Source: Chthonomonas calidirosea (lineage in GTDB: Bacteria; Armatimonadota; Fimbriimonadia; Fimbriimonadales; Fimbriimonadaceae). From it: a stretch of DNA of 64,000 nucleotides. This document shows positions 6,506 to 40,089 of the stretch, piece after piece; position 1 is the stretch's first letter; each line of letters starts with the position of its first letter. The stretch spans positions 23,923-87,922 of the forward strand of contig CAMAPH010000006.1 of assembly GCA_945859975.1 (NCBI GenBank). The letters are read 5' to 3'. The position numbers and the translations under genes were made by a program. Below the pieces are notes generated by a model. It did no database searches and was not told the origin of the DNA. It was given only the letters and a program-made list of their open reading frames with translations.

Positions 6506-6594
6506 ACGACGAAATTCTGGCAGGACTGACCACATTGGATCGGCCGCTTTTTCCCTGATTTGCAATCGGTATCATTGAGTTTCATCGTTACCAA

Positions 6595-7083
6595 ATGGCA
6601 GCTGAGAAACATGTTCAACACGAGAAAATCCCTGAAATGATTCGACCAGAAGATCTCTCGCTCCCCGTAATCCGGATCGGGAACGGTGTTCGCTTGGACC
6701 AGGAGCAAGAAATGCTCAAGGTCATGAGCGACAGCGCTCTCGATGACAACGGTGCCGTTCCGCAGTATTTTTGGGACAGCACGGGCCAGTGGTACCGGGC
6801 GGTCAACATTCGTAAAGTCGGGCGACTCCCGATCTGGAACCGCCTCTTCACCCCGAAGCACTTGATGCTTGCCGAGTATCAGCTCGTCAAACTCGATGGC
6901 CCACCAGCTCGATGGATCGGTGCCTTCAAGCAACTCGCCCGAGACTACATGGGCTGGGCGAGCGAAGACGTTTGGCAGGATTCCTCCGAACGCGCATCGC
7001 TGCGGAAGAGTACACATTCGGCGAAAGAGATGATTGAATGGATGGAGTTACACGCACAGCATTCGAAGTACTCAGACTTCTAG
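6595..7083 (+). CDS. Hypothetical protein, paralogue C (most divergent, more host-like GC)
   Basis: LPVIRIG, YFWDSTGQWYRAVNI, LMLAEYQL and RASLRK align with paralogues A and B. Confidence 0.8.
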   Translation: MAAEKHVQHEKIPEMIRPEDLSLPVIRIGNGVRLDQEQEMLKVMSDSALDDNGAVPQYFWDSTGQWYRAVNIRKVGRLPIWNRLFTPKHLMLAEYQLVKLDGPPARWIGAFKQLARDYMGWASEDVWQDSSERASLRKSTHSAKEMIEWMELHAQHSKYSDF

Positions 7084-22731: not shown

Positions 22732-23943
22732 GTGAAAGTTCTTGTTGCAGATCGGTTCGAAGAGATTGGCCTCGATGGTTTGCGTCGTCTTGGCGTCGAG
22801 GTGATCTATGAACCGTCACTCTCTGGGCAGAGCCTTGCCGAACGATTACGCGAGAGCGAAGCTGCCGTTTTGGTCGTTCGCAGCACCGAAGTTCCGGGCG
22901 AAGCCATGCGAGAGACCAAGTTGGGCCTGGTCATTCGCGCCGGTGCGGGATACAACACCATCGACATTGACGCAGCCAGCGAGCTCGGCATTCTCGTCAC
23001 GAACTGTCCCGGGAAGAACTCGCAGGCCGTAGCCGAGCTGGCTTGGGGACTGATTCTGGCTTGCGATCGACGTATCCCCGAGAATGTCGCCGACCTGAAT
23101 CATGGCGTTTGGAACAAGGCCGAATACTCTAAAGCGCGAGGACTTCACGGACGTACATTCGGTGTGATTGGAATCGGAAAGATCGCCCAGGAAATGGTTG
23201 TTCGGGCGAAGGCATTCGGAATGAACGTTGTCGCCTATAGCCGCTGGATGACGCCGGACCTCGCCGCTGGCCTACAAATTGGTCGCGCCAGCAATGCCAC
23301 CGAAGTCGCCCTCATGGCGGATGTGATCTCCGTCCACGTGGCGCTCACCCCAGAGACCAAGGGTTCCCTCGATCACGCCTTCTTCGACAAGCTTCGCCCC
23401 GGCGCCATTTTTATCAACACAAGTCGAGCCGAAGTCGTGGTTCAGGACGCGCTGCTCAAGGCCGTCAACGAGCGCGGAGTTCGCGCTGGTCTAGACGTGT
23501 TCGAAGGTGAACCCACCGGAGGAACCGGAAGCTATTCTGGTGCGCTTCAAAACTTGCCCGGCGTGTATTGCACGCATCACATCGGCGCCAGCACGGAACA
23601 AGCGCAAGAAGCAATTGCCCACGAAGTCGTACAGATTGTCCGCGAGTATCGAAGTAAGGGCGGAGTTCCAAACGTCGTAAACGTAAAGCGGGCCGAGGTG
23701 GCAACCCACGTGGTCGTGGTTCGGCACTTAGACCGCGTCGGCGTTCTCGCGCACGTTCTTTCCGTCCTCAAAGATGAAGGGCTAAACGTGCAAGAGATGG
23801 AGAATATCGTTCTTGGCGGTGCCCGATCAGCGATTGCTCAAATCTCGGTCGATCGCGAGCCCCGACCAGAGGGACTGCTCGCGATCAAGATGAACGAGAA
23901 CGTGTTTGACGTAAGCGTGTTTCAGATCGAAAGAGCCATCTAG
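22732..23943 (+). CDS. serA: D-3-phosphoglycerate dehydrogenase-like D-2-hydroxyacid dehydrogenase with an ACT domain
   Basis: RAGAG, GVIGIGKI, INTSR, LDVFEGEP, HIGASTEQAQ and a C-terminal ACT (H.DRVGVLA). Confidence 0.82.
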   Translation: MKVLVADRFEEIGLDGLRRLGVEVIYEPSLSGQSLAERLRESEAAVLVVRSTEVPGEAMRETKLGLVIRAGAGYNTIDIDAASELGILVTNCPGKNSQAVAELAWGLILACDRRIPENVADLNHGVWNKAEYSKARGLHGRTFGVIGIGKIAQEMVVRAKAFGMNVVAYSRWMTPDLAAGLQIGRASNATEVALMADVISVHVALTPETKGSLDHAFFDKLRPGAIFINTSRAEVVVQDALLKAVNERGVRAGLDVFEGEPTGGTGSYSGALQNLPGVYCTHHIGASTEQAQEAIAHEVVQIVREYRSKGGVPNVVNVKRAEVATHVVVVRHLDRVGVLAHVLSVLKDEGLNVQEMENIVLGGARSAIAQISVDREPRPEGLLAIKMNENVFDVSVFQIERAI

Positions 23944-24569
23944 GACTCTTTCAAGGTTAGCGTTGTGGTGCCGCGGCGGAGAATAACGCTTCGCTCGTTG
24001 ACGGCTTCCATTTCCCAGCCAAGCGGCCCTTTGCTTCCCTTTCGCCCGATCCACTCGGTGCCGTTCAAAAGCACGATTGCGATCGGGTGATAGCCATCGA
24101 TCAAGCCGATCAACTTTGGAGGATCAATCTTCGGTGCTTCTGGCTGGCTAGTGCCATTTTCATCGGGTCGAGTGACCGGCAGTGGGGAGAGCTGTCCAGT
24201 AGGGGCAGGTAAAGGCTCGGGATCCGGCAGTTTTGTGATCCCTGCTGGCGGTGTTGCCTTCACTACCCGCTTTGAAATTTCTCGGAAAGGAGTTGCCGGC
24301 GCAACGGCCGGAGGGTCCATGAGCGCAACCTTTCCGCTCGGAGATAACCCGGTAGCAACTGCACTAACGGTCCCGCCTGGAGTGGTCGCGACATCTGGAG
24401 TTCCTCCAGAAGAAATCACGATGGGCGCCGCTTCGGCTGTCGGTGCAGGAGCGCCGCCCAGAATCCCCATCGAAGTCAGAAGTTGGAATCCTACGAATCC
24501 AAAGACGATGACCACTCCGCCCACAAGGGCATACATTTTCTTCTGATCTTCTTTCGGAGTCGGCTTCAT
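23940..24569 (-). CDS. Type IV pilus accessory protein, PilP/GspC-like
   Basis: N-terminal TM, Pro-rich linker and C-terminal beta domain (KLIGLI.G...AIV); ATGA-coupled to the secretin. Confidence 0.55.
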   Translation of the reverse strand: MKPTPKEDQKKMYALVGGVVIVFGFVGFQLLTSMGILGGAPAPTAEAAPIVISSGGTPDVATTPGGTVSAVATGLSPSGKVALMDPPAVAPATPFREISKRVVKATPPAGITKLPDPEPLPAPTGQLSPLPVTRPDENGTSQPEAPKIDPPKLIGLIDGYHPIAIVLLNGTEWIGRKGSKGPLGWEMEAVNERSVILRRGTTTLTLKES

Positions 24570-26425
24570 TTGGGAGTCCCGGGCTTCGCATCATTCATGA
24601 TGCGAGGCGTTATCGTCACTACAATATCGGTCCTTCTCTTAGATTTCGTACGATTTTTGAACAATTCTCCGATGACCGGCAAGTCGCCCAAAATTGGGAA
24701 CTTCGTTAAAGTTTCAGTCTGCTCGTCTCGGATTAAGCCGCCAAGCACCACCGTCTCTCCATCGTTGACCACCACCGTGGTCTCCGCTTCTCGCGTACTG
24801 GTCTGCGGCAACCCGTTAGCGTCGACGCTTCGAATCGTGCTGACTGCTGGATTGACGTGCATCGTGATCGTGCCGTCTGGGTTAATTCGTGGACGAAGCA
24901 GCAAGATGATGCCGACCGGAAACTCTAGAACTTCGATCGTTTGGGCACCCAACGCGCCCGCCGTAGCGATTCGAACCCGCAACGTGTCGCCGATGAAGAC
25001 GCTAGCGCTGTCGTTGTCCATGACCTGAACCCGTGGGTTCGCCAAAATCTTCGCGTTTCCTTGGGTGATTTGTGCCGAGAGCGTTGCGGTCAACGAACCG
25101 GGCATGCGTGAAATCTGACCGAGTCCCGCTGGTCGGGTGGTGTTCAAGTTGTTGAAAGTCGTAAGATCGGCCGCTGTCCCACCAGGCACTTCCAAGAATT
25201 GGAGTGGCTGCCAGTTGAAGGTGTTGCCAATGTTGGAGGAGAAGTTTGGCGTCGTTTCAACAACGTTCACGTCCACCATGACCTGCGGCGGTCGAACGTC
25301 GATTGCTTCCAGCAACCGAATGGCTTCCATCACCCGGGCTTTCGGACCGCGAACTATGAGCCGACGGCCCTGCTCAGTTGACGTGCGTTGCAGTTGAACG
25401 TCGTCTTGAACGCCGCCCTGCTGCCCGCCGCCAAGAGCGCCTTGAGCGCCTTGCTGTTGCTGCTGTCCGCCACCGGCACCGCCCTGATCTGCCTGTCTAA
25501 TTTGCGAACTGATCGATGCGAACAAGCCTCGTTCGGGCGAATATGCCCTCGGCGCGACGAAAACGTCCACGTCCTTCATAGACTCTTTGAGGAATCGCTG
25601 CAGCGGTCCACTGGTAATGTACTTTGCCTCGTAAACCTCGGTCACGATGCCGGCATCCATCGGGTCGACAGCTTTATCAAGCTTCTCAACGGCAGCCTTT
25701 GCCGCAGTGACGCGCTCGGTCGTACCGGTTAGGGTGACGACGGCACCATTTGCCGTGACGATCACATCAGGGAATAGCGTGCTCATTTGGGCGACGATTT
25801 TGTTGACATCACCCTTGACCGAATAGACCTCGACTGCCCGAAGTGTTGGCGTTTGCGCTTCTCCCGAGAAGTCGTCGATGTACTGCTTAGCTTCCTTTAG
25901 GTCTTCCTGAATGCCGTAGAAAACGATCTTGTCGCCGATCGCCGTGACGCTTGCCTGCGGAAAAGCGGTCTCAAGGGCTTTAGCAATCTCGGTCGCCTTA
26001 GCCGGATCAACCTGGAATCGAGCCCGGAAGGAAAATGGCTCGAGGGCGCGCTTCATCTCGTCGAGTCCAGCGACCACGAACGTGTTCTGAGTGCGGCGGA
26101 AGGTGAGACCAGCAGCAGACACGGCAGCGCGGACAGCTTCGTCAGCGGAATTGGCAATGATGGTAAGCGTAATCGGTGTGCGATCTTTGCCCGCGTAAAC
26201 GATGTTCACGCCAAGTCTGGCGGCCAAAGCGCGGAATACGGACGGCACGGTTGTGTCCGTAAACGACAACCGAACGGGCAACTGACCTACGCCCGTTACG
26301 GCCCCGGTTCGGTTCGATGCCGCCGCAGACGTTACGTCCGCAACCTGTGGCTCGACAGCTGCGGGGGTGGGAACTGGTGTTCCTCCCAGCAGAGAGATTC
26401 CTAACGCAATTGCACTGTGACTCAT
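24566..26425 (-). CDS. Secretin (PilQ/GspD family)
   Basis: IDVRPPQVMVDV.VVE, AKILANPRV, GIIL.LRPRI, VVNDGETVVLGGL and PILGDLPVIGELFK. Confidence 0.93.
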   Translation of the reverse strand: MSHSAIALGISLLGGTPVPTPAAVEPQVADVTSAAASNRTGAVTGVGQLPVRLSFTDTTVPSVFRALAARLGVNIVYAGKDRTPITLTIIANSADEAVRAAVSAAGLTFRRTQNTFVVAGLDEMKRALEPFSFRARFQVDPAKATEIAKALETAFPQASVTAIGDKIVFYGIQEDLKEAKQYIDDFSGEAQTPTLRAVEVYSVKGDVNKIVAQMSTLFPDVIVTANGAVVTLTGTTERVTAAKAAVEKLDKAVDPMDAGIVTEVYEAKYITSGPLQRFLKESMKDVDVFVAPRAYSPERGLFASISSQIRQADQGGAGGGQQQQQGAQGALGGGQQGGVQDDVQLQRTSTEQGRRLIVRGPKARVMEAIRLLEAIDVRPPQVMVDVNVVETTPNFSSNIGNTFNWQPLQFLEVPGGTAADLTTFNNLNTTRPAGLGQISRMPGSLTATLSAQITQGNAKILANPRVQVMDNDSASVFIGDTLRVRIATAGALGAQTIEVLEFPVGIILLLRPRINPDGTITMHVNPAVSTIRSVDANGLPQTSTREAETTVVVNDGETVVLGGLIRDEQTETLTKFPILGDLPVIGELFKNRTKSKRRTDIVVTITPRIMNDAKPGTPK

Positions 26426-26427
26426 GA

Positions 26428-27012
26428 TTACCCTTCCTTGGTTTGTTCCGCTGACTCTTCTGCGAACGGCACGTTCATCAGAACGTATCGCGCCAGAACC
26501 ACGCCAAGTTCGGTAGCCGAATCCGTTCGGCTCCACTTGACATTACTTATTGTGTACATTCTTTGCGAATTTTCAAAGTCTCGCAAAAAGGCACGGATAT
26601 TAGCATAGCTTCCGCCAACGCTAAGTTCCGCATAAATCTTCTTGACGCCGGTTAAAGTCTTATCATCTTCCAGCGTGTAACGGTATCCGCGGCTGTCCAG
26701 AACCCCGGCTCCGAATGCCTGGGCGCGCGAACTCAACTTCAGCAAAGTCACGTTGTGAATCTTCGCAATCGAGTTCAGATCCGAAACAAATCGTGTTTCT
26801 TCGGTCGGACCATCCATCGGCCCAATGCGTCGTTGATACTGCGTAATGTCCTTCGACTTGCTGTTTAGGGCAATCGCCTTCTTGACGTCTTCGTCTGCCT
26901 TAGCAAAGTTGAGCTGAGCACCAATCACCCGGCCAAACTGAATAATCAGGGCGACGGTAGCACCGATGATGCACAGGACCGGAAGCAACCAACCTAAAAT
27001 TCGTGAGCTCAT
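26428..27012 (-). CDS. pilO: PilO-like type IV pilus assembly protein
   Basis: TM and coiled coil, then LSV.GSY..IR.FL.DFE...R; lies between pilMN and the secretin. Confidence 0.7.
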   Translation of the reverse strand: MSSRILGWLLPVLCIIGATVALIIQFGRVIGAQLNFAKADEDVKKAIALNSKSKDITQYQRRIGPMDGPTEETRFVSDLNSIAKIHNVTLLKLSSRAQAFGAGVLDSRGYRYTLEDDKTLTGVKKIYAELSVGGSYANIRAFLRDFENSQRMYTISNVKWSRTDSATELGVVLARYVLMNVPFAEESAEQTKEG

Positions 27013-27013
27013 C

Positions 27014-28687
27014 TTATTGTCCTCCCGTCGGGGTCGGCTGAGGTGCCTTTGGATCTACTGTCGGATCAACCTCTGGAACCACTGGAAGCGGCTTGCCTGC
27101 GTATTCAACCTCGGCAAGGTTGTATGTCCTGGCGCTGAGTTTGAACTCGATGAAGCTGGTGTTCTCTTCCTTCTTTCGCTCAATTCCGGCGATCGTCGGA
27201 GTCGTGAGTGCCTTACCTAGCTGCAGACGGCGCACCATGTCCACGATCAGGCTTTCCTCATTCGTATTGCCCTCGATCGTCACGTTTTGTTCCTGGCTGA
27301 TATCGATGGCCTTAATCCCAACGCCGGTCGGGGTGCTGCGAGAAATCTCATCAATGACGGACACCGCGGGCAATCCGTCCTTGCGGAGCAAATCGGCCTG
27401 CTGCACGAGGCGACGAACGGTACGGTCTGCCAACTCGGCCTGTTTACGAATGTTCTCTGCTCGCGTCTTCGTATCCTCAGTTTGGCGCTGGAGTTCATTG
27501 ACCTGGTAGCTCCCGAAGAGCCAGCCGCCAAGCCCCACCGCGAGGGCACCGATCGAAACAAGCACGCTTCCCAAAAGGTTGCGCTGGGTGTCCTTCTTTT
27601 GCTCAAGAGCAAAGTCTCGCTTATAGATCTCGACCCGCGGCGCGCCGTTCACGAGGTCGGCGCGGTCCATTAGGGCAATGCCGTAAGCCGTGTTATACGC
27701 GAGCGCACCTTGAGGCACGCTTTCCACGGGAGAATTCGGTACGAAAGCCCGGACAACGGTTTCGTCCGGGTCGTAGTTATTCGACTTGTCACCGAGCCAA
27801 GTCGAGAACGCGTCAGTCCAACGTAATTCAATATCAAGCCGAGTTGCAATCGGCTCTAAGAAAGTAGCCATCCGTTCCGTAACGCTTGTTACGAGCATGC
27901 GGCGTGGCAGGGCAGAAACATCAAATTCTCGCTCGAAGTAGTCTACAGAGCGACGGATATCCACCGCGAGTTCGTCAATTCTCGCGTCGTTTAGGTCAAG
28001 GCGGCCATCCTCGGTTTCAGAAACCAGCAAGTTGGCGCCAACGTTGAGAGACCTATAGAACCATAGTTCGCCTTTGACCAAAAGGGTCAAGTCCGCCGAG
28101 GTCTCGTGGAAGTTTAGAATGACAACCGATTCTTCGTGCGCCAGAAATGGGACGAGGGCTCGAAGTCGGGCAAACTGCGCAGGCTCAAGCGAAACCAGGT
28201 ACAGGTTCTGAGATTCACATGCTTCCTGGAGGTGCAAAACCGTACTGCTGTGCGTCGCCGCAATCAGAACCGGGACCTCATCTACTGCCTGGCTGTTTGG
28301 AGAACGCAGCTTGAAGAATCCGTAGGTTCCCTGGTCTTCTACCAAGTGATAGTGCGCGACTTCCCCATCAACAATCGTCTTGAGGTCGGCACCGGCCACG
28401 GCCGGAACGGAGATTCGGTAGGTCGAAACGCGAGCATCCGGCACCGCAATACTTACGCGGGTGTTGTTGTCAACCTTGAGCCGCTCAGCAAGTTTCTTGA
28501 GTGCCTGACCGACGAGCCCGGGATTTTGGATGAAGCCGCCGCTAACAAGACCGGCCTCGATTTGAAGAATAGCGTGAGCCGTGACCTGGGATCGATTGCC
28601 GCTATGCCGGACGTTTACACCACGAATTTCTGTATCCGTGATTTCGATTCCTACGTAATTGCGATTACGTCCGCGGTTGAAGGCCAT
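27014..28687 (-). CDS. pilM: PilM-PilN fusion protein
   Basis: N-terminal actin-like PilM (VGIEI, DIRRSVDYF, AYGIA), then TM, coiled coil and a PilN-like domain (IS..TP.GV.I..I...TIEG). Confidence 0.8.
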   Translation of the reverse strand: MAFNRGRNRNYVGIEITDTEIRGVNVRHSGNRSQVTAHAILQIEAGLVSGGFIQNPGLVGQALKKLAERLKVDNNTRVSIAVPDARVSTYRISVPAVAGADLKTIVDGEVAHYHLVEDQGTYGFFKLRSPNSQAVDEVPVLIAATHSSTVLHLQEACESQNLYLVSLEPAQFARLRALVPFLAHEESVVILNFHETSADLTLLVKGELWFYRSLNVGANLLVSETEDGRLDLNDARIDELAVDIRRSVDYFEREFDVSALPRRMLVTSVTERMATFLEPIATRLDIELRWTDAFSTWLGDKSNNYDPDETVVRAFVPNSPVESVPQGALAYNTAYGIALMDRADLVNGAPRVEIYKRDFALEQKKDTQRNLLGSVLVSIGALAVGLGGWLFGSYQVNELQRQTEDTKTRAENIRKQAELADRTVRRLVQQADLLRKDGLPAVSVIDEISRSTPTGVGIKAIDISQEQNVTIEGNTNEESLIVDMVRRLQLGKALTTPTIAGIERKKEENTSFIEFKLSARTYNLAEVEYAGKPLPVVPEVDPTVDPKAPQPTPTGGQ

Positions 28688-28928: not shown

Positions 28929-28960
28929 AAAAAGAGGCGGCGAGGCATCGCCTCGCCGCC
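28929..28960 (-). terminator. Intrinsic terminator of pilin copy 1
   Basis: GGCGGCGAGGC/GCCTCGCCGCC stem with an A tract on the + strand. Confidence 0.8.
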
Positions 28961-28988
28961 GGATCGCGGAACATCTTCAGCCTAACAA

Positions 28989-29381
28989 TTACTGCTGAAG
29001 GGTGATGGTTGGAAGATCAGCTGCGGTGCAGTTGCTTCCGGCAGCTGGCTTGATCGTAGCCGAAGCTGCAGTCTGCGTGAAGGTGTAGTCCGTAGCAAGC
29101 GAAGCAGCGCCGGTGCAAGGGTTGACCGGGATGGTGCCACCGAGCTCGGTCGTGATCGCGGAGCCAGGAATGTCGGTCGCGCTGTACGACTTACCGTTGC
29201 TCTTCACGTAAAGAGCCTGAACTGCGGTTGCGATTGCCTTAGCATTTGCGTTGGCCGTCTTGTGTCGCGCATCCTTCACCGAAGAAAGGTAGCTAGGAAG
29301 AGCGACGGCAACCAAGATGCCGAGGATGAGAACGACGACGAGAAGCTCGATGAGCGTAAAGGCTTTGTTAGACTTGTTCAT
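28989..29381 (-). CDS. pilA: Type IV major pilin, copy 1
   Basis: Class III signal MNKSNKA/FTLIELLVV, 130 aa, C-terminal Cys pair. Confidence 0.92.
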   Translation of the reverse strand: MNKSNKAFTLIELLVVVLILGILVAVALPSYLSSVKDARHKTANANAKAIATAVQALYVKSNGKSYSATDIPGSAITTELGGTIPVNPCTGAASLATDYTFTQTAASATIKPAAGSNCTAADLPTITLQQ

Positions 29382-29520
29382 TTTATGTTCCTAAACCAGC
29401 GGACTTAGTTGGAAAGATTTCCCTTTCGAGCCCCTGCTTTCGTTTACTAGTGTTTATCAGAATCTTTTTATTCGCAAGGACACCTTCCGGGTACTCAGTT
29501 TGTGTGACGGCCGGTCTGAC

Positions 29521-29558
29521 AAAGAAAAGCGCCCGTCCAGACGTATCTGGACGGGCGC
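29521..29558 (-). terminator. Intrinsic terminator of pilin copy 2
   Basis: 13-bp stem GCGCCCGTCCAGA/TCTGGACGGGCGC plus A tract. Confidence 0.85.
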
Positions 29559-29577
29559 GATTGACGGGACAATGCTC

Positions 29578-29970
29578 TTACTGAGCGAGGGTGATGACCG
29601 GCAAATCCGCTGCAGTGCAGTTGCTGCCCGCGGCTGGCTGGATCGTGGCCTGCGAAGCCGTCTGGGTCAGCGAGTAGTCAGTGGCGAGCGATGCGCCGCC
29701 GGTGCAAGGGTTGACCGGAATGTTTCCGCCGAGTTCAGCCGTGATGCTTGCGGATGGAATATCCGTCGCGCTGTAAGACTTTCCGTTTGACTTCGTGTAG
29801 AGCGCCTGGACGGCGGTTGCGATGGCCTTTGCGTTTGCGTTGGCGGTCTTGTGTCGGGCGTCCTTCACCGAGGAAAGGTAGCTCGGAAGAGCGACGGCAA
29901 CCAAGATGCCGAGGATGAGAACGACGACGAGAAGTTCGATGAGCGTGAAAGCTCTGTTTGTCTTGTTCAT
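29578..29970 (-). CDS. pilA: Type IV major pilin, copy 2
   Basis: MNKTNRA/FTLIE, 130 aa. Confidence 0.92.
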   Translation of the reverse strand: MNKTNRAFTLIELLVVVLILGILVAVALPSYLSSVKDARHKTANANAKAIATAVQALYTKSNGKSYSATDIPSASITAELGGNIPVNPCTGGASLATDYSLTQTASQATIQPAAGSNCTAADLPVITLAQ

Positions 29971-30119
29971 TTTATGACCCGAATTTTCGGCCCAGGAGTG
30001 GAAGAAATCCCTTACTGAAGACCGGACTACGAGATCTATTTTTTATCAGAATCTCGATACGCGCAATGACACCTTTTGGGTAATCGAATCGTGTCACAAC
30101 ACTTCCGGGGGACAAACGC

Positions 30120-30153
30120 AAAACGGCCCGGATGGCGATTGCCATCCGGGCCG
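30120..30153 (-). terminator. Intrinsic terminator of pilin copy 3
   Basis: 13-bp stem CGGCCCGGATGGC/GCCATCCGGGCCG plus A tract. Confidence 0.85.
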
Positions 30154-30167
30154 AAGCTCAACAAATC

Positions 30168-30560
30168 TTACTGCTGAAGGGTGATCGTTGGGAGGTCAGC
30201 TGCGGTGCAGTTGCTTCCGGCAGCAGGCTTGATCGTCGCCGAAGATGCGCTCTGCGTCAGAGTGTAGTCCGTCGCAAGCGCAGCAGCGCCGGTGCAAGGG
30301 TTGACTGGGATCGTTCCGCCGAGTTCGGTCGTGATCGCCGAAGTCGGAATGTCGGTCGCGCTGTACGACTTACCGTTGCTCTTCACGTAAAGAGCCTGAA
30401 CTGCGGTTGCGATTGCCTTAGCGTTTGCGTTGGCGGTCTTGTGTCGAGCATCCTTCACCGAGGAAAGGTAGCTAGGAAGAGCGACGGCAACCAAGATGCC
30501 GAGGATGAGAACGACGACGAGAAGTTCGATGAGCGTAAAAGCTTTATTAGACTTGTTCAT
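30168..30560 (-). CDS. pilA: Type IV major pilin, copy 3
   Basis: MNKSNKA/FTLIE, 130 aa. Confidence 0.92.
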   Translation of the reverse strand: MNKSNKAFTLIELLVVVLILGILVAVALPSYLSSVKDARHKTANANAKAIATAVQALYVKSNGKSYSATDIPTSAITTELGGTIPVNPCTGAAALATDYTLTQSASSATIKPAAGSNCTAADLPTITLQQ

Positions 30561-30699
30561 GGCTGATTCCAGTTGCTCCCTCAGCCGCTTATATCGCACT
30601 GAAGAACACTAACGTTATTGGTCATTTTCATAGTAATTCCATACCTAAAACTAAATGCCAGTAATACTGCGGGTGAATTGCAATGATCTGAACAAACAG

Positions 30700-30731
30700 A
30701 AAAAGGCCACCCCAGATTGCCTGGGGTGGCC
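30700..30731 (-). terminator. Intrinsic terminator of pilin copy 4
   Basis: GGCCACCCCAG/CTGGGGTGGCC stem plus A tract. Confidence 0.85.
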
Positions 30732-30758
30732 GAAGTACGAGCCTTGAGAATAGAGCTC

Positions 30759-31151
30759 TTACTGAGTTAAAGTGATGGTTGGAAGGTCACCCGCGGTGCA
30801 GTTGGTGCCAGCGGCCGGCTTGACCGAAGCGGAGCTTGCGGACTGCGTCAAAGTGTAGTCGGTGGTAAGCGAAGCCGCTCCCGTACAAGGGTTGTTCGGA
30901 ATCGTTCCACCAAGTTCGGTGGTGATGTCGGTTGCCGAAATGTCGGTCGAGCTGTACGACTTTCCGTTGCTCTTCACGTAGAGAGCCTGAACTGCGGTTG
31001 CGATCGCCTTGGCGTTTGCATTGGCGGTCTTGTGTCGAGCATCCTTCACCGAAGAAAGGTAGCTAGGAAGAGCGACAGCAACCAAGATGCCGAGGATGAG
31101 AACGACGACGAGCAGCTCGATGAGCGTAAAGGCTTTATTTGACTTATTCAT
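30759..31151 (-). CDS. pilA: Type IV major pilin, copy 4
   Basis: MNKSNKA/FTLIE, 130 aa. Confidence 0.92.
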   Translation of the reverse strand: MNKSNKAFTLIELLVVVLILGILVAVALPSYLSSVKDARHKTANANAKAIATAVQALYVKSNGKSYSSTDISATDITTELGGTIPNNPCTGAASLTTDYTLTQSASSASVKPAAGTNCTAGDLPTITLTQ

Positions 31152-31287
31152 GACCGAATTCCTGTTACTACACCAACCGCTTGCGTTGTACTGAAGAACA
31201 CTCTAGTTGTTGGCGGAATTCCTATGTTCTCTAGTGCTGTCTCAGGATAGCGGACAAATGATCTGACGGTCCAGATGCACAAAACGC

Positions 31288-31320
31288 AAAAAAGGCCATC
31301 CCAGTCTTCCTGGGATGGCC
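31288..31320 (-). terminator. Intrinsic terminator of pilin copy 5
   Basis: GGCCATCCCAG/CTGGGATGGCC stem plus A tract; closely related to the copy 4 terminator. Confidence 0.85.
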
Positions 31321-31346
31321 CGAAGCCAACGAGCGAAGCCGTTATC

Positions 31347-31739
31347 CTACTGGGAAAGAGTGATGGCTGGTAGGTCAGCTAAGGTGCAGTTGCTACCAGC
31401 AGCAGGCTGAATAACTGCCGAAGAAGCGGTCTGCACTAGGCCGTAGTCCGTTCCAAGCGCAGCAGCGCCGGTGCAAGGGTTGACTGGGATCGTGCCACCG
31501 AGTTCGGTCGTGATTGCCGAAGTCGGAATGTCGGTCGAGCTGTAAGACTTACCGTTGCTCTTAACATAGAGAGCCTGAACTGCGGTTGCGATTGCCTTAG
31601 CATTTGCGTTGGCCGTCTTGTGTCGCGCATCCTTCACCGAAGAAAGGTAGCTAGGAAGAGCTACGGCAACGAGGATTCCGAGGATGAGAACGACGACGAG
31701 AAGCTCGATGAGCGTAAAAGCTTTGTTGGACTTATTCAT
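31347..31739 (-). CDS. pilA: Type IV major pilin, copy 5
   Basis: MNKSNKA/FTLIE, 130 aa. Confidence 0.92.
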   Translation of the reverse strand: MNKSNKAFTLIELLVVVLILGILVAVALPSYLSSVKDARHKTANANAKAIATAVQALYVKSNGKSYSSTDIPTSAITTELGGTIPVNPCTGAAALGTDYGLVQTASSAVIQPAAGSNCTLADLPAITLSQ

Positions 31740-31906
31740 GACTGATTTCTCGTTGGCCACTGGATTTTAGAGTTCCAATGAAGAACGATGATGTTATTGG
31801 CACCAGCGATGATTTACTTCAGCCCTTTCGTCCGCGGAACTCAAACTTTTGGTCCGAAGTAACGAAGTGGTGTTGAAAGCCAAAAGGTGTACAAGCCTTG
31901 AGACGC

Positions 31907-31942
31907 AAAAACTCCCCTTCCCGAAGTCGGGAAGGGGAGTTT
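31907..31942 (-). terminator. Intrinsic terminator of pilin copy 6
   Basis: AAACTCCCCTTCCCGA/TCGGGAAGGGGAGTTT stem. Confidence 0.85.
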
Positions 31943-31969
31943 GAACTTGCCAATCCGAGCGAAACCGTC

Positions 31970-32362
31970 TTACTGCGAAAGAGTGATCAGCTTGAGCTCA
32001 GAGGTGTCGCAGTTCGATCCAGCCGCTGGCTGAACCGTTGCGCTCGCTGCGGACTGCGTGAGGCCGTAGTCCGTTCCGAGAACGGCTGCACCGGTGCAAG
32101 GGTTGACCGGAATGGTGCCACCGAGTTCGGTGGTGATCGCCGAAGTCGGAATGTCGGTCGCGCTGTAAGACTTACCGTTGCTCTTCACGTAAAGAGCCTG
32201 AACTGCGGTAGCAATCGCCTTGGCGTTTGCGTTTGCGGTCTTGTGTCGCGAGTCCTTAACCGAAGAGAGGTAGCTTGGAAGTGCAACCGCAACCAAGATG
32301 CCGAGGATGAGAACGACGACGAGAAGCTCGATGAGCGTAAATGCCTTGTTGGACTTGTTCAT
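31970..32362 (-). CDS. pilA: Type IV major pilin, copy 6
   Basis: MNKSNKA/FTLIE, 130 aa, divergent C-terminus (CDTSELKLITLSQ). Confidence 0.92.
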   Translation of the reverse strand: MNKSNKAFTLIELLVVVLILGILVAVALPSYLSSVKDSRHKTANANAKAIATAVQALYVKSNGKSYSATDIPTSAITTELGGTIPVNPCTGAAVLGTDYGLTQSAASATVQPAAGSNCDTSELKLITLSQ

Positions 32363-32526
32363 GATCTATTTCCTGTTGCTCCCTCAACCCTTCGTGTTGC
32401 AAAGAAGAACACTTTATTAGTTGGAAACCGGCACAAAAAATCCAAGGATTTCTTCGAAAATGCCAGTATTTTTACTGTCCCGTTCAACACTTAGAAATTC
32501 CAGCGCCAAAGGCGAAACAGGTGTAC

Positions 32527-32922
32527 TTATTTCGAAAGGGTGATCGCCGGCAGTGACGAAGCGTCGCAGGTGGAACCTGCCGCGGGTCGAAGGGTCGCGG
32601 TCGTTGCCGTAAGCGTCAAAGCATAATCGGTGCTCAACGAAGATCCACCGGTGCATGGATTGCGTGGAATGGACCCACCGAGTTCGAACGTGATGTTGAC
32701 ATCACTGATGGCAGCCGCATTGTAGGCCGTTCCTCCGGTCTTCACGAACAATGCCTGAATCGCGGTCGCGACGGCGCGAGCATTCGCATTTGCGGTCTTG
32801 TGGCGAGAGTCCTTCACCGAGGAAAGATACGAAGGCAACGCGACGGCAACCAAGATGCCAAGAATGAGCACCACAACCAGCAGCTCAATCAGGGTAAACG
32901 CGCGCTCAAACTTCCTCACCAT
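32527..32922 (-). CDS. Type IV pilin, copy 7 (divergent paralogue)
   Basis: MVRKFERA/FTLIE; N-terminal helix the same as copies 1-6, divergent head, NPCT...C retained. Confidence 0.9.
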   Translation of the reverse strand: MVRKFERAFTLIELLVVVLILGILVAVALPSYLSSVKDSRHKTANANARAVATAIQALFVKTGGTAYNAAAISDVNITFELGGSIPRNPCTGGSSLSTDYALTLTATTATLRPAAGSTCDASSLPAITLSK

Positions 32923-32979
32923 GACCCTAGTTTCCCTCAGATCAGGAAAACAAGGGTGTCCCATTTTCTTGGCGAACTT

Positions 32980-33381
32980 TTATTGCGTGAGGGTGATCGT
33001 GCGCATTCCCGCGGAGTCGCAAAGCGTTCCGGCCAGCGGAGACATCGTGGCGGTGCTTGGAGTGAGCATCAGCTGATAATCCACCGACAACGAACGTCCC
33101 GTGGTGCAAGGATTGATTGGAACCTGCCCGCCAAGCTCAACCAAGATCGCGGCTTCCGTAATGGAGGAGTGGTTGTACGCCAATCCGCCCGTACGAACAT
33201 AGAGCGCTTGCACGGTGATTGCGATCGTCTGCGCGTTTGAATTTGCCGTTTTCTGTCGAGTGTCGCGGACCGAGGAAAGGTAGGAAGGCAGCGCGAACGC
33301 GAAAAGGATGCCGATGATGAGGACCACCATCAGCACCTCAATCAGAGTAAAAGCCTTCGAACGTTTTTTAAAGCAATTCAT
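32980..33381 (-). CDS. Type IV pilin, copy 8 (most divergent paralogue)
   Basis: MNCFKKRSKA/FTLIEVL; ELGG.VP.NPCT...C retained. Confidence 0.9.
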   Translation of the reverse strand: MNCFKKRSKAFTLIEVLMVVLIIGILFAFALPSYLSSVRDTRQKTANSNAQTIAITVQALYVRTGGLAYNHSSITEAAILVELGGQVPINPCTTGRSLSVDYQLMLTPSTATMSPLAGTLCDSAGMRTITLTQ

Positions 33382-33487: not shown

Positions 33488-34717
33488 TTACTTGCCTGAT
33501 TTCTCGAACGCCTTACCAAGGCTAAAGATCGGCATGTACAGCGCGAGCAGAACGAACAAGACGATCGCTCCAACCACGCCGGTCATGATCGGTTCGATCA
33601 TCTTCGTCATCTTCTCGACCGCGTACTCAACGTCGCGCTCGTAGAACTTGTTCACTTCGTCGAGCATGGCGTCAAGATCGCCGCTGGCTTCGCCAGCAGC
33701 AACCATCTTGGTGACCATCGGAGGAAACTCGTTGGTCTTCTCCAGCTCAGGCCCGAGGGCCGCGCCGTCTCGAACCGCGCTGGCCGCCGTCATAACCGCG
33801 TCCTTAATCACTGAGTTGGCGGAAGCGCCTGCAGAAACCGCCAGTGCGCGAAGAACCGGAACACCGGCTCGGGTCGAACCGGCAAGGGTCTGCACGAACC
33901 GCGCAATCGCTACCTTTCGCATGATCGGACCCACCAAAGGCAATTTAAGCGAAATCTCATCCAGGCGTCGCTTTCCGTTTGGCGTTTCCGCGTAGCGCTT
34001 GTAACCGTAAAACGCCAGCCCCATCAGAATCAAGCCGATATACCAATACTTGATCACCGCATTCGAGATGTTGATCAGCGTTTGAGTAACCGTCGGCAAC
34101 TCGGCTCGAAGGTCCTTATAAACCTGAGCAAAGGTCGGAACAACCACGAGGAGCATGATCGCAACCGTAATACAAGCGGCGGCGACAACGATCTTTGGAT
34201 AGACCATTGCTCCGTTCACTTTTCGCTTCAGCTCTTCCATCCGGTCAAGCTGGTCCGCGGCGATGTCGAGACAGAAGTCGAGGTTTCCGGCCGCTTCACC
34301 GGCTTCAAGCATCGAAACGAGCAGTTCCGGGAACACCTTTGGATACCGTCGGAATTGGTTGGAAAGGCTGTCACCCGAAACAATGCCGGCCTGGATCTCC
34401 GAAAGGATCTCCTTCATCACCGCGTTCTGGGTCTGCTCGTAAAGAATTTCGATGCCCTGCGTAAGCGGCATACCGCAACGCACAAGCGTGGCGAGCTGCC
34501 GGGCAATAACCACAACCTCAGACGACTTCGGCATCTTCGGCCCCATAAGTCCGCCGCCTTGTCCGGTTTCCGGCTTACTATCGCGTTGCTCAAACTGGGT
34601 CAGATACAGGCCGTTCTGACGCAACAACGACCGCAACTCATCTGGGTTGTTCGCTTGGAGCAACCCTTTAACAACCGCGCCTGCACGGTCCCGACATTCA
34701 TATTCATAAACGGTCAT
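33488..34717 (-). CDS. pilC: Type IV pilus platform protein PilC (GspF family)
   Basis: YEYE..D..G, RQLATL..CG, AGE..G.L, AM.YP and a duplicated T2SSF domain ending IEP...ALYMPIF. Confidence 0.95.
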   Translation of the reverse strand: MTVYEYECRDRAGAVVKGLLQANNPDELRSLLRQNGLYLTQFEQRDSKPETGQGGGLMGPKMPKSSEVVVIARQLATLVRCGMPLTQGIEILYEQTQNAVMKEILSEIQAGIVSGDSLSNQFRRYPKVFPELLVSMLEAGEAAGNLDFCLDIAADQLDRMEELKRKVNGAMVYPKIVVAAACITVAIMLLVVVPTFAQVYKDLRAELPTVTQTLINISNAVIKYWYIGLILMGLAFYGYKRYAETPNGKRRLDEISLKLPLVGPIMRKVAIARFVQTLAGSTRAGVPVLRALAVSAGASANSVIKDAVMTAASAVRDGAALGPELEKTNEFPPMVTKMVAAGEASGDLDAMLDEVNKFYERDVEYAVEKMTKMIEPIMTGVVGAIVLFVLLALYMPIFSLGKAFEKSGK

Positions 34718-34722
34718 TTGTC

Positions 34723-36417
34723 TTAATCCTCTTCCATCGCAAATACGCGCATGATCTCACTAGCAGGTACCTGACCTGCCAACACTTTTTCAATCGCACT
34801 TTGACGCATCGTCTTCATTCCGGTGGCAAGCGCACATTCGAAGAGCTCCGCACCAGACGCTCCGGAGAGCACCAATTCTCGAAGTTTTTCGTTCATCGTC
34901 ACGATTTCCACCGCTGCCGTTCGCCCGCGGGTGCCTCGTCCGTTGCATCGTTTGCACCCGGTTCCCTTGCCTACCAATGGGGGCTTTCCGTCCACCAGAG
35001 GAATTCCGACCGCCATGCAGTACTCCTTCTCAATCTCAACCATCTGCCGGCAAGACATGCACACGGTCCGCAGAAGGCGCTGCCCGAGAATTCCGGTAAC
35101 CGCCGAAGCGATCAAGAACGGCTCCACGCCCATGTTCTGAAGACGCACCAGAGCACCCGGCGCATCGTTGGTGTGCAAGGTACTGAGAACAAGGTGGCCA
35201 GTAAGGGCTGCCTGAACGGCAATCTCCGCCGTGTCCTTGTCTCGAATTTCACCAACCAGAATCACGTCCGGGTCTTGTCGAACCAAGGTTCGCAGACCAC
35301 TCGTAAACGTCACGCCAATCTTCGGATTGACCTGCATTTGGTTGACGCCGTTCAGCTGATACTCAACGGGGTCCTCAACCGTGTTGATGTTGATCGAAGG
35401 CTCGTTGATGTATTGAAGGCCCGCATAAAGCGTGGTCGACTTCCCGGAACCCGTCGGACCGGTGACCAGCAACAAGCCGTGCGGTCGCTTGATCATTCGC
35501 TCAAAAACAACCTGCTGTTCGGAAAGCAACCCGATTCGGTCGATGCGGGCGAATGTGTTGTTCTTTTCCAACATTCGCATACAAGCCTTTTCGCCGTGAA
35601 CGGTCGGCATGATGCTCAGTCGAACGTCGAACTCCCGGCTGTTATCGTCTCGGATCGTAAAGCGGCCATCCTGCGGACGCCGACGCTCGGCGATGTCGAG
35701 GCCAGACATGACCTTGAGTCGCGACATCATTGCCAGCATGTGCTGACGCGGCACCTGGATGTGGTCATACAAAATGCCGTCGATTCGATACCGAACCCGT
35801 ACCGTGGTTTCTTGCGGTTCGATGTGAATATCTGAAGCACCCGCCGAAACCGCGCCGGTGACCATCTCATTCACCAGCTTTACGATCGGCGCCGTATCGG
35901 CGGCCTGCGGAATCTCTTCTTCCTGGTGCTCGTTGTCGTCCGTGATGATCGCGTCGATGATCGCGCGGGCTTTGCTCCGAACGTCGAACACGCGTCGGAT
36001 ACCTGCTTCAATGTCGCGCTTCAGCGCGTAGCAGGGAACAATTCGCCGCCCGGTAATGGCGCGCAACTCGTCAACGACCTCAAAGTTGAGTGGGTCGTTC
36101 ATCGCTATGAGCAACCGCTCGTCTTCTTCGCGGATCGGCAGCGCCAGGTTTGTAAGCGCAAAATGCTCGCTCACCATCATGGCCACCTCAACGTCGATTT
36201 CCTGGTCACCGACGTCGATGAAAGGGAAACCCGATGCCTGCTCAATGAACGGAGCGAGTTCAGAAACCGAAAGCGTTCCTGCCGTGATTAGGACCTCGGC
36301 CAAAGACTCGCCGCTTTGCAAATGGCGCTGCACGGCCTGCTCCAGCTGATCCGAAGGAAGGACCTCGTTCTTCGCCAGAACCTTTGCGAGTCGATCGATC
36401 GTTCGGCCGTCCATCAT
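34723..36417 (-). CDS. pilB: Type IV pilus assembly ATPase PilB (GspE family)
   Basis: ASDIHIEP, Walker A GPTGSGKSTT, TVEDPVE, RQDPDVILVGEIRD, TGHLVLSTLHTND and two CxxC motifs. Confidence 0.96.
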   Translation of the reverse strand: MMDGRTIDRLAKVLAKNEVLPSDQLEQAVQRHLQSGESLAEVLITAGTLSVSELAPFIEQASGFPFIDVGDQEIDVEVAMMVSEHFALTNLALPIREEDERLLIAMNDPLNFEVVDELRAITGRRIVPCYALKRDIEAGIRRVFDVRSKARAIIDAIITDDNEHQEEEIPQAADTAPIVKLVNEMVTGAVSAGASDIHIEPQETTVRVRYRIDGILYDHIQVPRQHMLAMMSRLKVMSGLDIAERRRPQDGRFTIRDDNSREFDVRLSIMPTVHGEKACMRMLEKNNTFARIDRIGLLSEQQVVFERMIKRPHGLLLVTGPTGSGKSTTLYAGLQYINEPSININTVEDPVEYQLNGVNQMQVNPKIGVTFTSGLRTLVRQDPDVILVGEIRDKDTAEIAVQAALTGHLVLSTLHTNDAPGALVRLQNMGVEPFLIASAVTGILGQRLLRTVCMSCRQMVEIEKEYCMAVGIPLVDGKPPLVGKGTGCKRCNGRGTRGRTAAVEIVTMNEKLRELVLSGASGAELFECALATGMKTMRQSAIEKVLAGQVPASEIMRVFAMEED

Positions 36418-39046: not shown

Positions 39047-39253
39047 TTACTTCATGCCGGAGCCGACGCGGGCTTCCGCGCCTTTTCCGGCTTCCGATAG
39101 CCCGCGAGACTGCATTTCAACGCCACCCTTTGCGGTTTCACCCGGAACGGGTGCCGCATTGGGGTCGCTTGCCACGGCCGGCGGCTCAGAGTTGCAACCA
39201 ACCAAGAGAATGCCAACCGCAACCAAGATTGCGAGCTTTATTCGTTGTCCCAT
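39047..39253 (-). CDS. Small lipoprotein
   Basis: Lipobox LVGC after a hydrophobic signal; overlaps the end of the prepilin gene. Confidence 0.6.
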   Translation of the reverse strand: MGQRIKLAILVAVGILLVGCNSEPPAVASDPNAAPVPGETAKGGVEMQSRGLSEAGKGAEARVGSGMK

Positions 39254-40089
39254 AGATACTGCGACTTGTCGATCAACTGCACGGCACTGGCGTTGATGGT
39301 TCTATTCCAGTTCGTTCCAATGGCGAGAGCGCCTGGGCTCAGCTTTCGAACGCTGCCATCCGCAAAGCCAACGGTCGCCTTCTCCGCCGCTCGGAGGCTT
39401 GTGCCACCGGTGAGCGAGCCAGCCTCGTACGACTTGATTCCCATCAGCGCTGGGTCACCCCAGAAGCTACCAACGCCCCAACCGTCAAAGCACCAATCTG
39501 CTCGGGTTCGGCAGTCTGGCGGGTCCACGATCACGCTCGTGTCGGGCCCGATCGCTCCGTAGCTGTAGTACTGACCGCCGGTCAATCGGCTCTCGGAAGT
39601 CTGCTCAAATCGTCCGGTGAGCATGACCGTATTCGATGGGGCGCCAAGCGAGCTCTGCGAACGCGTCGATGGAACGACCAAAGGCGACGGACCTTCGTAT
39701 GGAGCGAGGGTCGAATAGTTGTAGCCAAACGTTCCCGTTAGGGTGACCTGGTTTACGAAACCAAAGGCCGAACCTCGGGGGACGCGTGGAGCCAGTGGAT
39801 CTTCGAACAAGTCAGCCGACTTAATGTACGGAAGGATGTTCCAGACCCAGCTCGAATAGCCGATGAAGTTGCCGGAGTTGTCCCATCGGTTGGCGGGGAC
39901 GAAAGTGTCCTCGGTGTCGCCCATGTAAAGCAGGTGTCCAAGCACGATCTGCTTGTTGTTGCTAATGCTGGCAGCGGACTTGGCTGCTTGCTTCGCCTGA
40001 GCGAAGACTGGGAATAGGATGGCAGCGAGGATTGCAATGATCGCAATCACGACGAGAAGTTCGATAAGTGTAAATGCTCTTGAGCGCAA
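39238..40089 (-). CDS. Prepilin-type N-terminal cleavage/methylation protein (DUF1559-like)
   Basis: RA/FTLIELLVVIAIIAILAAILFPVFAQAK, SN.KQI.LG..Y and a C-terminal GFADG. Confidence 0.9.
   Translation of the reverse strand: MRSRAFTLIELLVVIAIIAILAAILFPVFAQAKQAAKSAASISNNKQIVLGHLLYMGDTEDTFVPANRWDNSGNFIGYSSWVWNILPYIKSADLFEDPLAPRVPRGSAFGFVNQVTLTGTFGYNYSTLAPYEGPSPLVVPSTRSQSSLGAPSNTVMLTGRFEQTSESRLTGGQYYSYGAIGPDTSVIVDPPDCRTRADWCFDGWGVGSFWGDPALMGIKSYEAGSLTGGTSLRAAEKATVGFADGSVRKLSPGALAIGTNWNRTINASAVQLIDKSQYLWDNE

Follow-up and report, generated by a model that had tools for sequence, protein, structure and literature searches.

Organization of the pilin array

The window analyzed in this work is a stretch of 64,000 nucleotides (nt) of contig CAMAPH010000006.1 (positions 23,923 to 87,922; assembly GCA_945859975.1, deposited as Chthonomonas calidirosea), which originates from a freshwater, Fimbriimonas-like bacterium of the family Fimbriimonadaceae. 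The genome carrying it, designated G000, is a 101-contig assembly and is 95.8% complete. The subject of the present study is a tandem array of eight type IV pilin genes, c1 to c8, located on the minus strand within a cluster of type IVa pilus (T4aP) genes. The order on this strand is pilB, pilC, c8 to c1 (from 33381 down to 28989), a pilM-pilN fusion, a pilO-like gene and a secretin gene. The array itself, from the terminator of c1 to the start codon of c8, spans 28929-33381.

Six of the genes are of the major-pilin type and encode 130 amino acids (aa) each: c1 (28989-29381), c2 (29578-29970), c3 (30168-30560, from the ATG at 30560), c4 (30759-31151), c5 (31347-31739, from the ATG at 31739) and c6 (31970-32362), the last with a divergent tail. 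They are preceded in the direction of reading by c7 (32527-32922, 131 aa), an older paralogue devoid of a terminator of its own, and by c8 (32980-33381, 133 aa), the oldest paralogue, which begins 106 nt past pilC. The eight genes are direct repeats with start-to-start spacings of 589, 590, 591, 588, 623, 557 and 453 nt, the repeat period within c1-c6 being 588-623 nt. The locus had been singled out by a model that was given the DNA alone. This sequence-only reading described eight full-length pilins between pilC and pilMN, six of them of exactly 130 aa with listed head motifs and tails; the eight complete minus-strand open reading frames (ORFs) and their alignment bear out each of these statements, and adjacent full-length paralogues within a pil cluster are what a system with multiple major pilins displays.

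The eight copies align without internal gaps and only their leaders vary in length. Identity to c1 amounts to 88% for c2, 96% for c3, 88% for c4, 90% for c5, 88% for c6, 68% for c7 and 56% for c8. PF07963 (N_methyl) is the sole Pfam match in the five copies scanned (5/5), c1, c2 and c6 among them. The cleavage region (K/R)A↓FTLIE of a class III signal peptide is present in all eight. Position -1 is occupied by Ala in the copies of the window and by Gly in their orthologues of the related genome G008; Ala is tolerated at this position by prepilin peptidases. The NPCT...C signature noted in the sequence-only reading is kept, N87-P88-C89 being invariant in an alignment of 17 sequences and C89 and C118 in one of 60, and the two invariant cysteines are predicted to close a C-terminal disulfide-bonded loop. 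Mature residues 1-59 are identical in c1, c3, c4 and c5; c6 differs at one position, and c2 at one besides the leader.

The AlphaFold2 model, with a predicted local distance difference test score of 88.3, consists of a helix (residues 10-60) and a small head. The ten best matches returned for it by Foldseek from the PDB are all type IV pilins, with Thermus PilA4 (6xxd_A) at the top (template modelling score 0.57, probability 0.99), the E-values being weak (0.037 at best). A profile built from 60 family members matched, at E = 1e-12 to 3e-8, T4a major pilins of solved structure in their N-terminal helix, namely those of Geobacter and Shewanella, a 208-residue chain (8tj2) bearing the deposited name 'Type IV major pilin protein PilA', Streptococcus sanguinis PilE1, PAK, Thermus PilA5 and the gonococcal pilin. 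An identity as GspG, the major pseudopilin of type II secretion, was considered and rejected: GspG reached only 7.4e-4 in the profile search, and the cluster contains PilM, PilN and PilO domains and no Gsp-specific families.

Terminators and upstream regions

A perfect GC-rich hairpin of 11-15 bp with a T-run is found within about 15-45 nt after each of c1-c6 (6/6). The hairpins, all on the minus strand, lie at 28936-28960 (c1, 11 pairs then a T-run), 29529-29558 (c2, 13 pairs), 30124-30153 (c3, 13 pairs), 30705-30731 (c4, 12 pairs), 31293-31321 (c5, 12 pairs) and 31907-31942 (c6, 15 pairs then TTTTT). The first five were obtained by terminator scan and folding; that of c6, absent from the list of the scan, was recognized by sequence and folding. 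For the 75 nt past each stop codon, the folding energy is -30.8 to -36.0 kcal/mol, and the z-scores are -3.0 to -6.1 in reference to 200 mononucleotide shuffles. The six stems are unlike in sequence and it is therefore the structure that is kept. No terminator was found after c7 (fold z = -0.3), and the hairpin of c8 is devoid of a T-run and overlaps the start of c7.

The sequence-only reading had assigned to each of the six copies its own strong terminator and upstream motif. The first part of this claim stands as such; the second had to be amended, as the upstream regions belong to two families rather than one. Class A, common to c1 (29447-29508) and c2 (30036-30100), contains AAGGTGTCMTTGCG and GATTCTGATAA, the block of c1 being nearly invariant between G000 and the related genome G164. 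Class B, recognized by motif comparison and genome-wide pattern scan, consists of CCAAYAAY-N5-7-GTTCTTC followed by a GAGGGAGCAAC-like sequence nearer to the ATG; it precedes c3 (30596-30622), c4 (31193-31213), c5 (31780-31800) and c6 (32404-32424), again on the minus strand. In the genome-wide scan, the array holds 4 of the 5 class B matches and 2 of the 6 class A matches. Being nearly confined to the array, the motifs were rejected as a regulon signature, and they are uninformative on a general promoter consensus. A class A half-motif, AGTTCTGATAAT, is present between c1 and pilMN, upstream of pilMN. Between G000 and G164, almost no change is seen in the blocks upstream of c1, c2, c3 and c6, and the 5' untranslated region beyond them diverges, in c2 even across the ribosome-binding region; in c4 the proximal class B block alone survives. 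The blocks of both classes are candidate promoters or operators, and TG-N-TAAACA or TG-N-TAAAAA in class A might, at a guess, represent an extended -10 element.

A number of other signals were considered and discarded. The pilA genes of Pseudomonas or Myxococcus are transcribed from a sigma-54 promoter; no Sigma54_DBD domain was found in G000, G014 (described below) or G008, and the upstream GG/GC spacing is, by eye, a misfit. The spacing is likewise a misfit, by eye, for a sigma-28-like reading of the class B block. Riboswitches and further known RNAs were rejected for the spacers as well, since Rfam searched at E up to 1 returned four sub-threshold matches only: three fall on the hairpins that follow c2 or pilC, and one lies next to the pilC hairpin. 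This last hairpin, of 11 bp, belongs to the segment 33400-33470 (minus strand) past pilC; an A-run precedes it, the hairpin itself includes a T-run, and beyond it TTGCGC-17 nt-TACATT is found shortly before c8. Judged by eye, these elements may constitute a partial terminator and a weak promoter for c8-c7.

Conservation and selection

In order to evaluate the array across relatives, it was compared to G014, a genome of the same genus assembled as a single contig of 3.29 Mb. Over 17.4 kb aligned to the window, at 95.5% nt identity, the same eight copies are found in the same order, so that the array is not an assembly artefact. Identity per feature ranges from 93.4 to 98.2% for the pilins and from 93.3 to 98.2% for the array spacers. 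Of the 1180 positions in the six spacers that separate c1 to c7, only 41 are changed (3.5%), as compared to 105.5 of the 817.5 synonymous sites of the pilins (12.9%), which indicates that the spacers are constrained.

The ratio of nonsynonymous to synonymous divergence (dN/dS) between G000 and G014 is 0.02, 0.26, 0.26, 0, 0.03, 0.09, 0.06 and 0.05 for c1 to c8, respectively, with a pooled value of 0.075; the proteins of c4 and c5 are identical in the two genomes. For pilO, pilMN, pilC, pilB and the neighbouring GMP (nucleotidyl-transferase) gene the ratio is 0.01-0.05. At the larger distance of G164, whose flanks are about 84% identical to those of G000 at the nt level, the values are 0.08 for c1, 0.14 for c2, 0.05 for c4, 0.04 for c7 and 0.08 for c8. 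Every copy is under purifying selection and no copy decays. The sequence-only reading had named a collapse of the array in long reads, and the expression of a single copy with neutral decay of the others, as outcomes that would count against it; the spacers are unique, the eight copies recur in a single contig and dN/dS lies far below 1 in every copy.

Comparison of c1-c6 to each other yields, for codons 1-66, a dS of 0.16-0.77 and a dN of 0-0.05 and, for codons 67-130, a dS of 0.37-2.1 and a dN/dS of 0.09-0.33. The combination of high dS and low dN over codons 1-66 implies that the near-identity of the first 65 residues is mainly due to purifying selection on old duplicates and not to recent copying. 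The corresponding ratio of uncorrected proportions (pN/pS), obtained per region from pairwise counts pooled over disjoint pairs, is 0.02-0.06 in the helix and at most 0.37 in the loop after it, 0.33 in the loop between the cysteines and 0.46 in the tail. Amino-acid replacements are therefore in excess in no region, all pooled regional values being <0.5.

Evolution of the array

Members of the genus have in common the slot pilB-pilC-[pilins]-pilMN-pilO-secretin. The number of pilins it contains is 1 in G003 and G021, 3 in G015, 5 in G008, 7 in G164 and 8 in G000 and G014. A tree of 34 sequences groups c1-c6 with their counterparts of G014 in a single clade (support 83/60), the sister group of which is a pair of G008 copies (87/84). 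As stated in the sequence-only reading, c7 and c8 are older paralogues, placed outside the clade of c1-c6, and the four copies of G007 form a clade of their own. The separate clades of other species imply that expansions took place more than once. On the scale of the family sample, 49 of 151 genomes contain a match at E <= 1e-15; runs of close matches comprise at least 8 copies in G000 and G014, at least 7 in G164, at least 5 in G151, at least 4 in G171 and at least 3 in several others, and the closed 5.2-Mb genome G024 holds at least 6 dispersed copies. As 27 candidates were scored per genome, these counts are lower bounds. Repeated expansion of the pilA unit in tandem is thus seen across the Fimbriimonadaceae.

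The array is retained and individual cassettes turn over within it. The seven copies of G164, on a 485-kb contig, include recognizable orthologues of c1, c2, c4, c7 and c8. They share genome-specific residues and one pair is 93% identical at the nt level, which indicates some conversion or re-duplication. The pair in question is located in locus L141 (contig C4 of G164) at 6543-6911 and 8396-8764, the other pairs of this genome being 80-88% identical; its similarity points to a recent re-duplication or conversion of the c2-type cassette into the first major-type position. In L131, a metagenome contig of a close relative, an extra cassette, X, lies between c7 and a c6-like copy and is 76% identical to both c2 and c6; L132 displays c7, X and then a different third copy. 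Cassette X (L131 1258-1626, L132 937-1305) carries two extra cysteines (KCYC) in the loop after the helix, found in no copy of the window. The c7-c6 spacer of the window and the c7-X spacer of L131 share the same length of 164 nt and are 61% identical, as compared to 33% for the X-c6 spacer. The window spacer is consequently paired with the c7-X spacer, and one cassette was therefore gained or lost.

A background sample of 73 loci was also inspected. This sample is biased: it covers other phyla, was collected with a generic pattern of the pilin N-terminus and includes no close relatives. Seven of its 73 loci contain at least 3 adjacent pilin-like ORFs, and near-identical heads occur in 1 of those 7 only. 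This locus, L071, from a metagenome-assembled genome of the Solirubrobacterales, contains four adjacent pilin ORFs of 136-137 aa with a head-domain identity of 78% on average and up to 100%, the same tandem-paralogue design in an actinobacterial genome.

Expression proxies

Codon adaptation index (CAI) weights were derived from 13 ribosomal-protein genes of G000, and the pilins were ranked among its 2635 ORFs. The CAI of c1-c6 is 0.69-0.78, corresponding to the 92.8-99.6th percentiles (c1, 99.0; c2, 98.7; c3, 98.6; c4, 94.8; c5, 92.8; c6, 99.6), a level similar to that of enolase and of the ATP synthase beta subunit. Both c7 and c8 have a CAI of 0.58, at the 48th percentile (48.2 and 48.4, respectively), and the machinery genes occupy the 36-85th percentiles. 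As c7 and c8 match c1-c6 in length and composition, they constitute an internal control for this measure. Synonymous divergence between G000 and G164 is 0.42-0.56 for the orthologues of c1, c2 and c4, as compared to 1.66-1.81 for c7 and c8. The lower values fit a stronger codon constraint on the former, with exchange between lineages as a possible alternative.

Four metatranscriptome assemblies from freshwater or lakes contain short contigs at 95-99% identity to the array. These RNA-library pieces were assigned by counting differences against each paralogous interval. The attribution to c1 is safe: pieces from 3 runs show 1-6 differences to it and at least 11 to any other copy. One piece belongs to c7 (7 differences, at least 41 to the others) and another probably to c5 (7 differences, at least 14 to the others). 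Further pieces cover the unique leaders of c2, with one fragment, and of c3, with contigs of 2 runs on the 5' end and on 28-30 nt of the leader. The pieces that fall on c6 and on the central part of c3 are indistinguishable from other copies. No piece was found on c4 or c8 among these contigs, which is not evidence of silence. The contigs hint that several copies are transcribed in nature. The position of c1-c6 in a slot occupied by a single copy in G003 and G021, their high CAI and the RNA-library contigs together suggest, indirectly, that they may provide the main structural subunit of the filament.

Pilus machinery and neighbouring genes

The T4aP machinery genes flanking the array are all encoded on the minus strand. 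The platform protein PilC (33488-34717, PF00482) and the assembly ATPase PilB (34723-36417, PF00437 and an MshEN domain) are located before the pilins. Beyond them lie the pilM-pilN fusion (27014-28687, PF11104 and PF05137), the pilO-like gene (26428-27012), whose match to PF04350 is weak (E = 0.0058, below the curated cut-off) and whose position is kept in relatives, and the PilQ-like secretin gene (24566-26536, PF00263 and PF03958). PilM and PilN form a single protein of 557 aa, with PF11104 at residues 13-223 and PF05137 at residues 444-520, and relatives provide end-to-end matches. The secretin gene is the most diverged of the locus between G000 and G014 (89.0% nt identity and a 6-nt length difference, the neighbours being at 94-98%). 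A Pro/Ala/Thr-rich ORF of 209 aa (23940-24569, minus strand) devoid of any Pfam family overlaps the secretin stop codon by 4 nt and is found at the same place in locus L130 with 74.5% aa identity; it may be an unrecognized part of the pilus machine.

Elsewhere in G000, the segment C13:33176-38519 is a second type IV filament cluster, with a PilB-like ATPase, a PilT-like ATPase and the only Peptidase_A24 (prepilin peptidase) match of the genome. Three further PilT-like frames are located on contig C38, and the ATPase frames of the genome comprise four of PilB/GspE size and four shorter PilT-like ones. About 60 ORFs or matches of G000 carry an N-methylation motif, many of them of about 300 aa; one ORF of the window with this motif (39238-40089, minus strand) also matches DUF1559. 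This number agrees with the 65 genes with an N-methylation motif described for Fimbriimonas ginsengisoli, a fimbriate and non-motile species (PMC4072686).

Proposed explanation and alternatives

The explanation that we favour, and to which about even confidence is granted, considers c1-c6 as six major pilins that are used jointly and share a single assembly helix, and c7-c8 as low-abundance paralogues, the pili being mixed. It can be summarized as follows. A unit composed of upstream region, pilA and terminator would have been amplified in tandem, in a lineage-specific manner, in the pilA slot of the T4aP cluster. Each of c1-c6 would be a transcription unit of its own, with a putative promoter, separately terminated and highly expressed, and the six would be co-expressed in one cell. 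The helix made of mature residues 1-59 would dock into the machine and build the filament core; as this shared helix is identical, the single PilB/PilC/PilMN/PilO/secretin machine could not distinguish the subunits and would co-assemble them. The pili would then be mixtures, the composition of which would be set by the relative output of six genes under two upstream classes (c1-c2 and c3-c6). The older c7 and c8 would be made with or just after pilBC as low-abundance pilins. As a result, pilin would be in large supply and the surface of the filament would be chemically mixed, and the copy number would change by unequal recombination between the conserved 5' halves.

Several points weigh against this explanation. 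Purifying selection and codon bias fit equally well a pure dosage effect or the condition-specific use of single copies. The presence of paralogues together in one filament is a prediction. CAI is noisy on genes of 130 codons. The RNA contigs come from mixed relatives and are uninformative on strand, level and co-expression in a single cell, and such libraries can carry DNA. The promoters are likewise a matter of inference, the extended -10 candidate being a guess. A consensus scan for sigma-70 returned no match before any pilin copy and two matches in all, one per strand, for 2.3 expected; the sole minus-strand match is located at 28829-28800, between c1 and pilMN. Finally, an adapter-flanked RNA-library fragment of 135 nt (29933-30067) crosses the predicted promoter of c2, which suggests read-through, DNA carry-over or a start located further upstream.

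A simpler alternative, unlikely in our view yet deserving of serious consideration, is that the copies merely raise pilin output for dense fimbriae and that the differences between heads are tolerated drift. The high CAI and individual terminators of all six copies agree with such a dosage effect, as do the head pN/pS values, nowhere above 0.46, and the fimbriate, non-motile character described for F. ginsengisoli (PMC4072686). The heads were nevertheless not homogenized by gene conversion, and G164 retains, at a synonymous divergence of 0.4-0.6, the residues of head and tail that are specific to c1, c2 and c4. Moreover, pN/pS between paralogues is somewhat above that between orthologues in the disulfide loop (0.28 versus 0.15) and in the tail (0.46 versus 0.10), and two upstream classes are maintained.

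The existence of two conserved upstream classes, and of the class A half-motif upstream of pilMN, would on the other hand be expected if regulators switched the copies according to state, such as planktonic or attached, to produce mostly homopolymeric pili that differ in their surfaces. A model of this kind was proposed for PilA1-6 of Haloferax volcanii (PMC4371748), which provides a precedent. We consider it rather improbable here: no regulator gene was found in the locus among the window ORFs scanned, and a single metatranscriptome, X1, holds pieces of c1, probable c5 and the leaders of c2 and c3 together, as a population and not as a single cell.

Antigenic or phase variation, in which one copy is expressed and the others act as recombination donors or are switched by rearrangement in order to escape pilus-binding phages or grazers, is very improbable. 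Its appeal comes from the array content, which differs between close strains (cassette X in L131 and L132, seven copies in G164), from the failure of 58% of the informative site pairs among c1-c6 in the four-gamete test and from the long tract shared by c1 and c5, the best of 15 pairs in the conversion tests of G000 (p = 0.0025). The conversion tests are, however, weak overall (global p = 0.14; p = 0.42 in a test similar to the pairwise homoplasy index), G000 and G014 keep the eight copies strictly in order, and pN/pS stays below 0.5 in every region. Every element expected of DNA-level switching is lacking. The silent donors of the pilE/pilS type have neither promoter, start nor signal peptide; all eight genes of the array are complete ORFs with start codon and leader, and no truncated pilin copy was found among them. 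Invertase-driven switching of the Moraxella tfpQ/tfpI type relies on a recombinase beside the pilins and on flanking inverted repeats. No recombinase, integrase or transposase family was detected in the 58 window ORFs scanned, 16 of which have no family at all. The terminator hairpins are the only inverted repeats inside the array; each of the seven long-range pairs listed has one arm outside. The sequence-only reading was thus right in reporting no recombinase nearby and in opposing multiple intact, expressible pilins to silent pilS-type copies, a distinction now sustained by purifying selection everywhere and by the codon usage of highly expressed genes in c1-c6. Its suggestion of a switch to evade phages or predators is not sustained, with head pN/pS of at most 0.46 and no invertible or truncated elements.

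The idea of an assembly artefact or of decaying duplicates, raised by the 101 contigs of G000 and by short-read metagenome contigs that break inside the array, was tested and rejected as next to impossible, given eight copies inside a single-contig genome of 3.29 Mb, seven inside a 485-kb contig, unique spacers, no stops and a dN/dS far below 1 for each copy.

Comparison to known systems

The filament of S. sanguinis is a heteropolymer. According to PMC11121087, the major-pilin genes of this species (pilE1/pilE2 or pilA1-3) are adjacent and number two or three depending on the strain, and a single major pilin still suffices for pili. The array shares with this system the side-by-side arrangement, in the pil cluster, of full-length paralogues that are highly similar within a strain (PMC11121087). 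It differs by its six high-expression copies and two others, by its location in a diderm cluster with a secretin and by the terminator and upstream block specific to each major-type copy.

The six pilins PilA1-PilA6 of H. volcanii resemble the array in their number, their almost fully conserved hydrophobic domain and their variable heads. According to the account given in PMC4371748, each PilA can be the major pilin, pili are lost only upon deletion of all six and adhesion differs between them. This organism is an archaeon in which, in the same account, none of the six is co-regulated with the pilus-biosynthesis genes, as opposed to a bacterial tandem array within the machinery cluster. Stigmatella aurantiaca, like the present genome, contains tandem pilA genes within one T4aP cluster, an arrangement of two copies that the authors qualify as 'unusual', and the number of pilA homologues in a myxobacterial genome ranges from one to seven (PMC6060248); all four pilA homologues of S. 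aurantiaca are reported to be transcribed (PMC3776727). Myxobacterial paralogues are mostly dispersed and divergent, whereas six close copies with a near-identical helix are gathered here in one array, in a lineage where G000, G014 and G008 contain no detectable sigma-54 gene.

The pilS copies of Neisseria lack promoters and 5' ends. The pilE/pilS system and the array have in common many pilin sequences with conserved 5' and variable 3' parts; the eight genes of the array are, in contrast, complete and subject to purifying selection, they display no clear tracts of recent conversion, and c1-c6 have terminators. In the literature, no paper on pilin arrays in this phylum was found, the supplementary tables of PMC4072686 and PMC6060248, which may list pilin copies, lying outside the search. 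In view of the precedents in S. sanguinis, Stigmatella and H. volcanii, the label of an undescribed system used in the sequence-only reading was too strong. The array is an unusually large and well-kept case of a known habit, several main pilins served by one machine, and not a new kind of system.

Significance

The reasons for keeping several main pilins are poorly understood, and the cases studied have two or three. Six equally well-kept high-expression copies are available here, conserved over species-level divergence in an array whose copy number is strain-variable. Practical value is limited while no cultured strain carrying the array is at hand. The array would constitute a natural test bed for the handling of a mixed subunit pool by one machine, and for the question of whether mixed pili widen adhesion or reduce phage attachment. 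A wider proposal, which we put forward with considerable doubt, is that Fimbriimonadaceae build mosaic pili from at least six simultaneously expressed major pilins sharing one helix and that co-occurring strains differ in the cassettes of their arrays, so that surface diversity would arise both inside single filaments and at the level of the population, without a recombination system devoted to it. If this were true, mosaic pili would provide constant protection from pilus-specific phages or grazers, or serve as an adhesin of broad spectrum.

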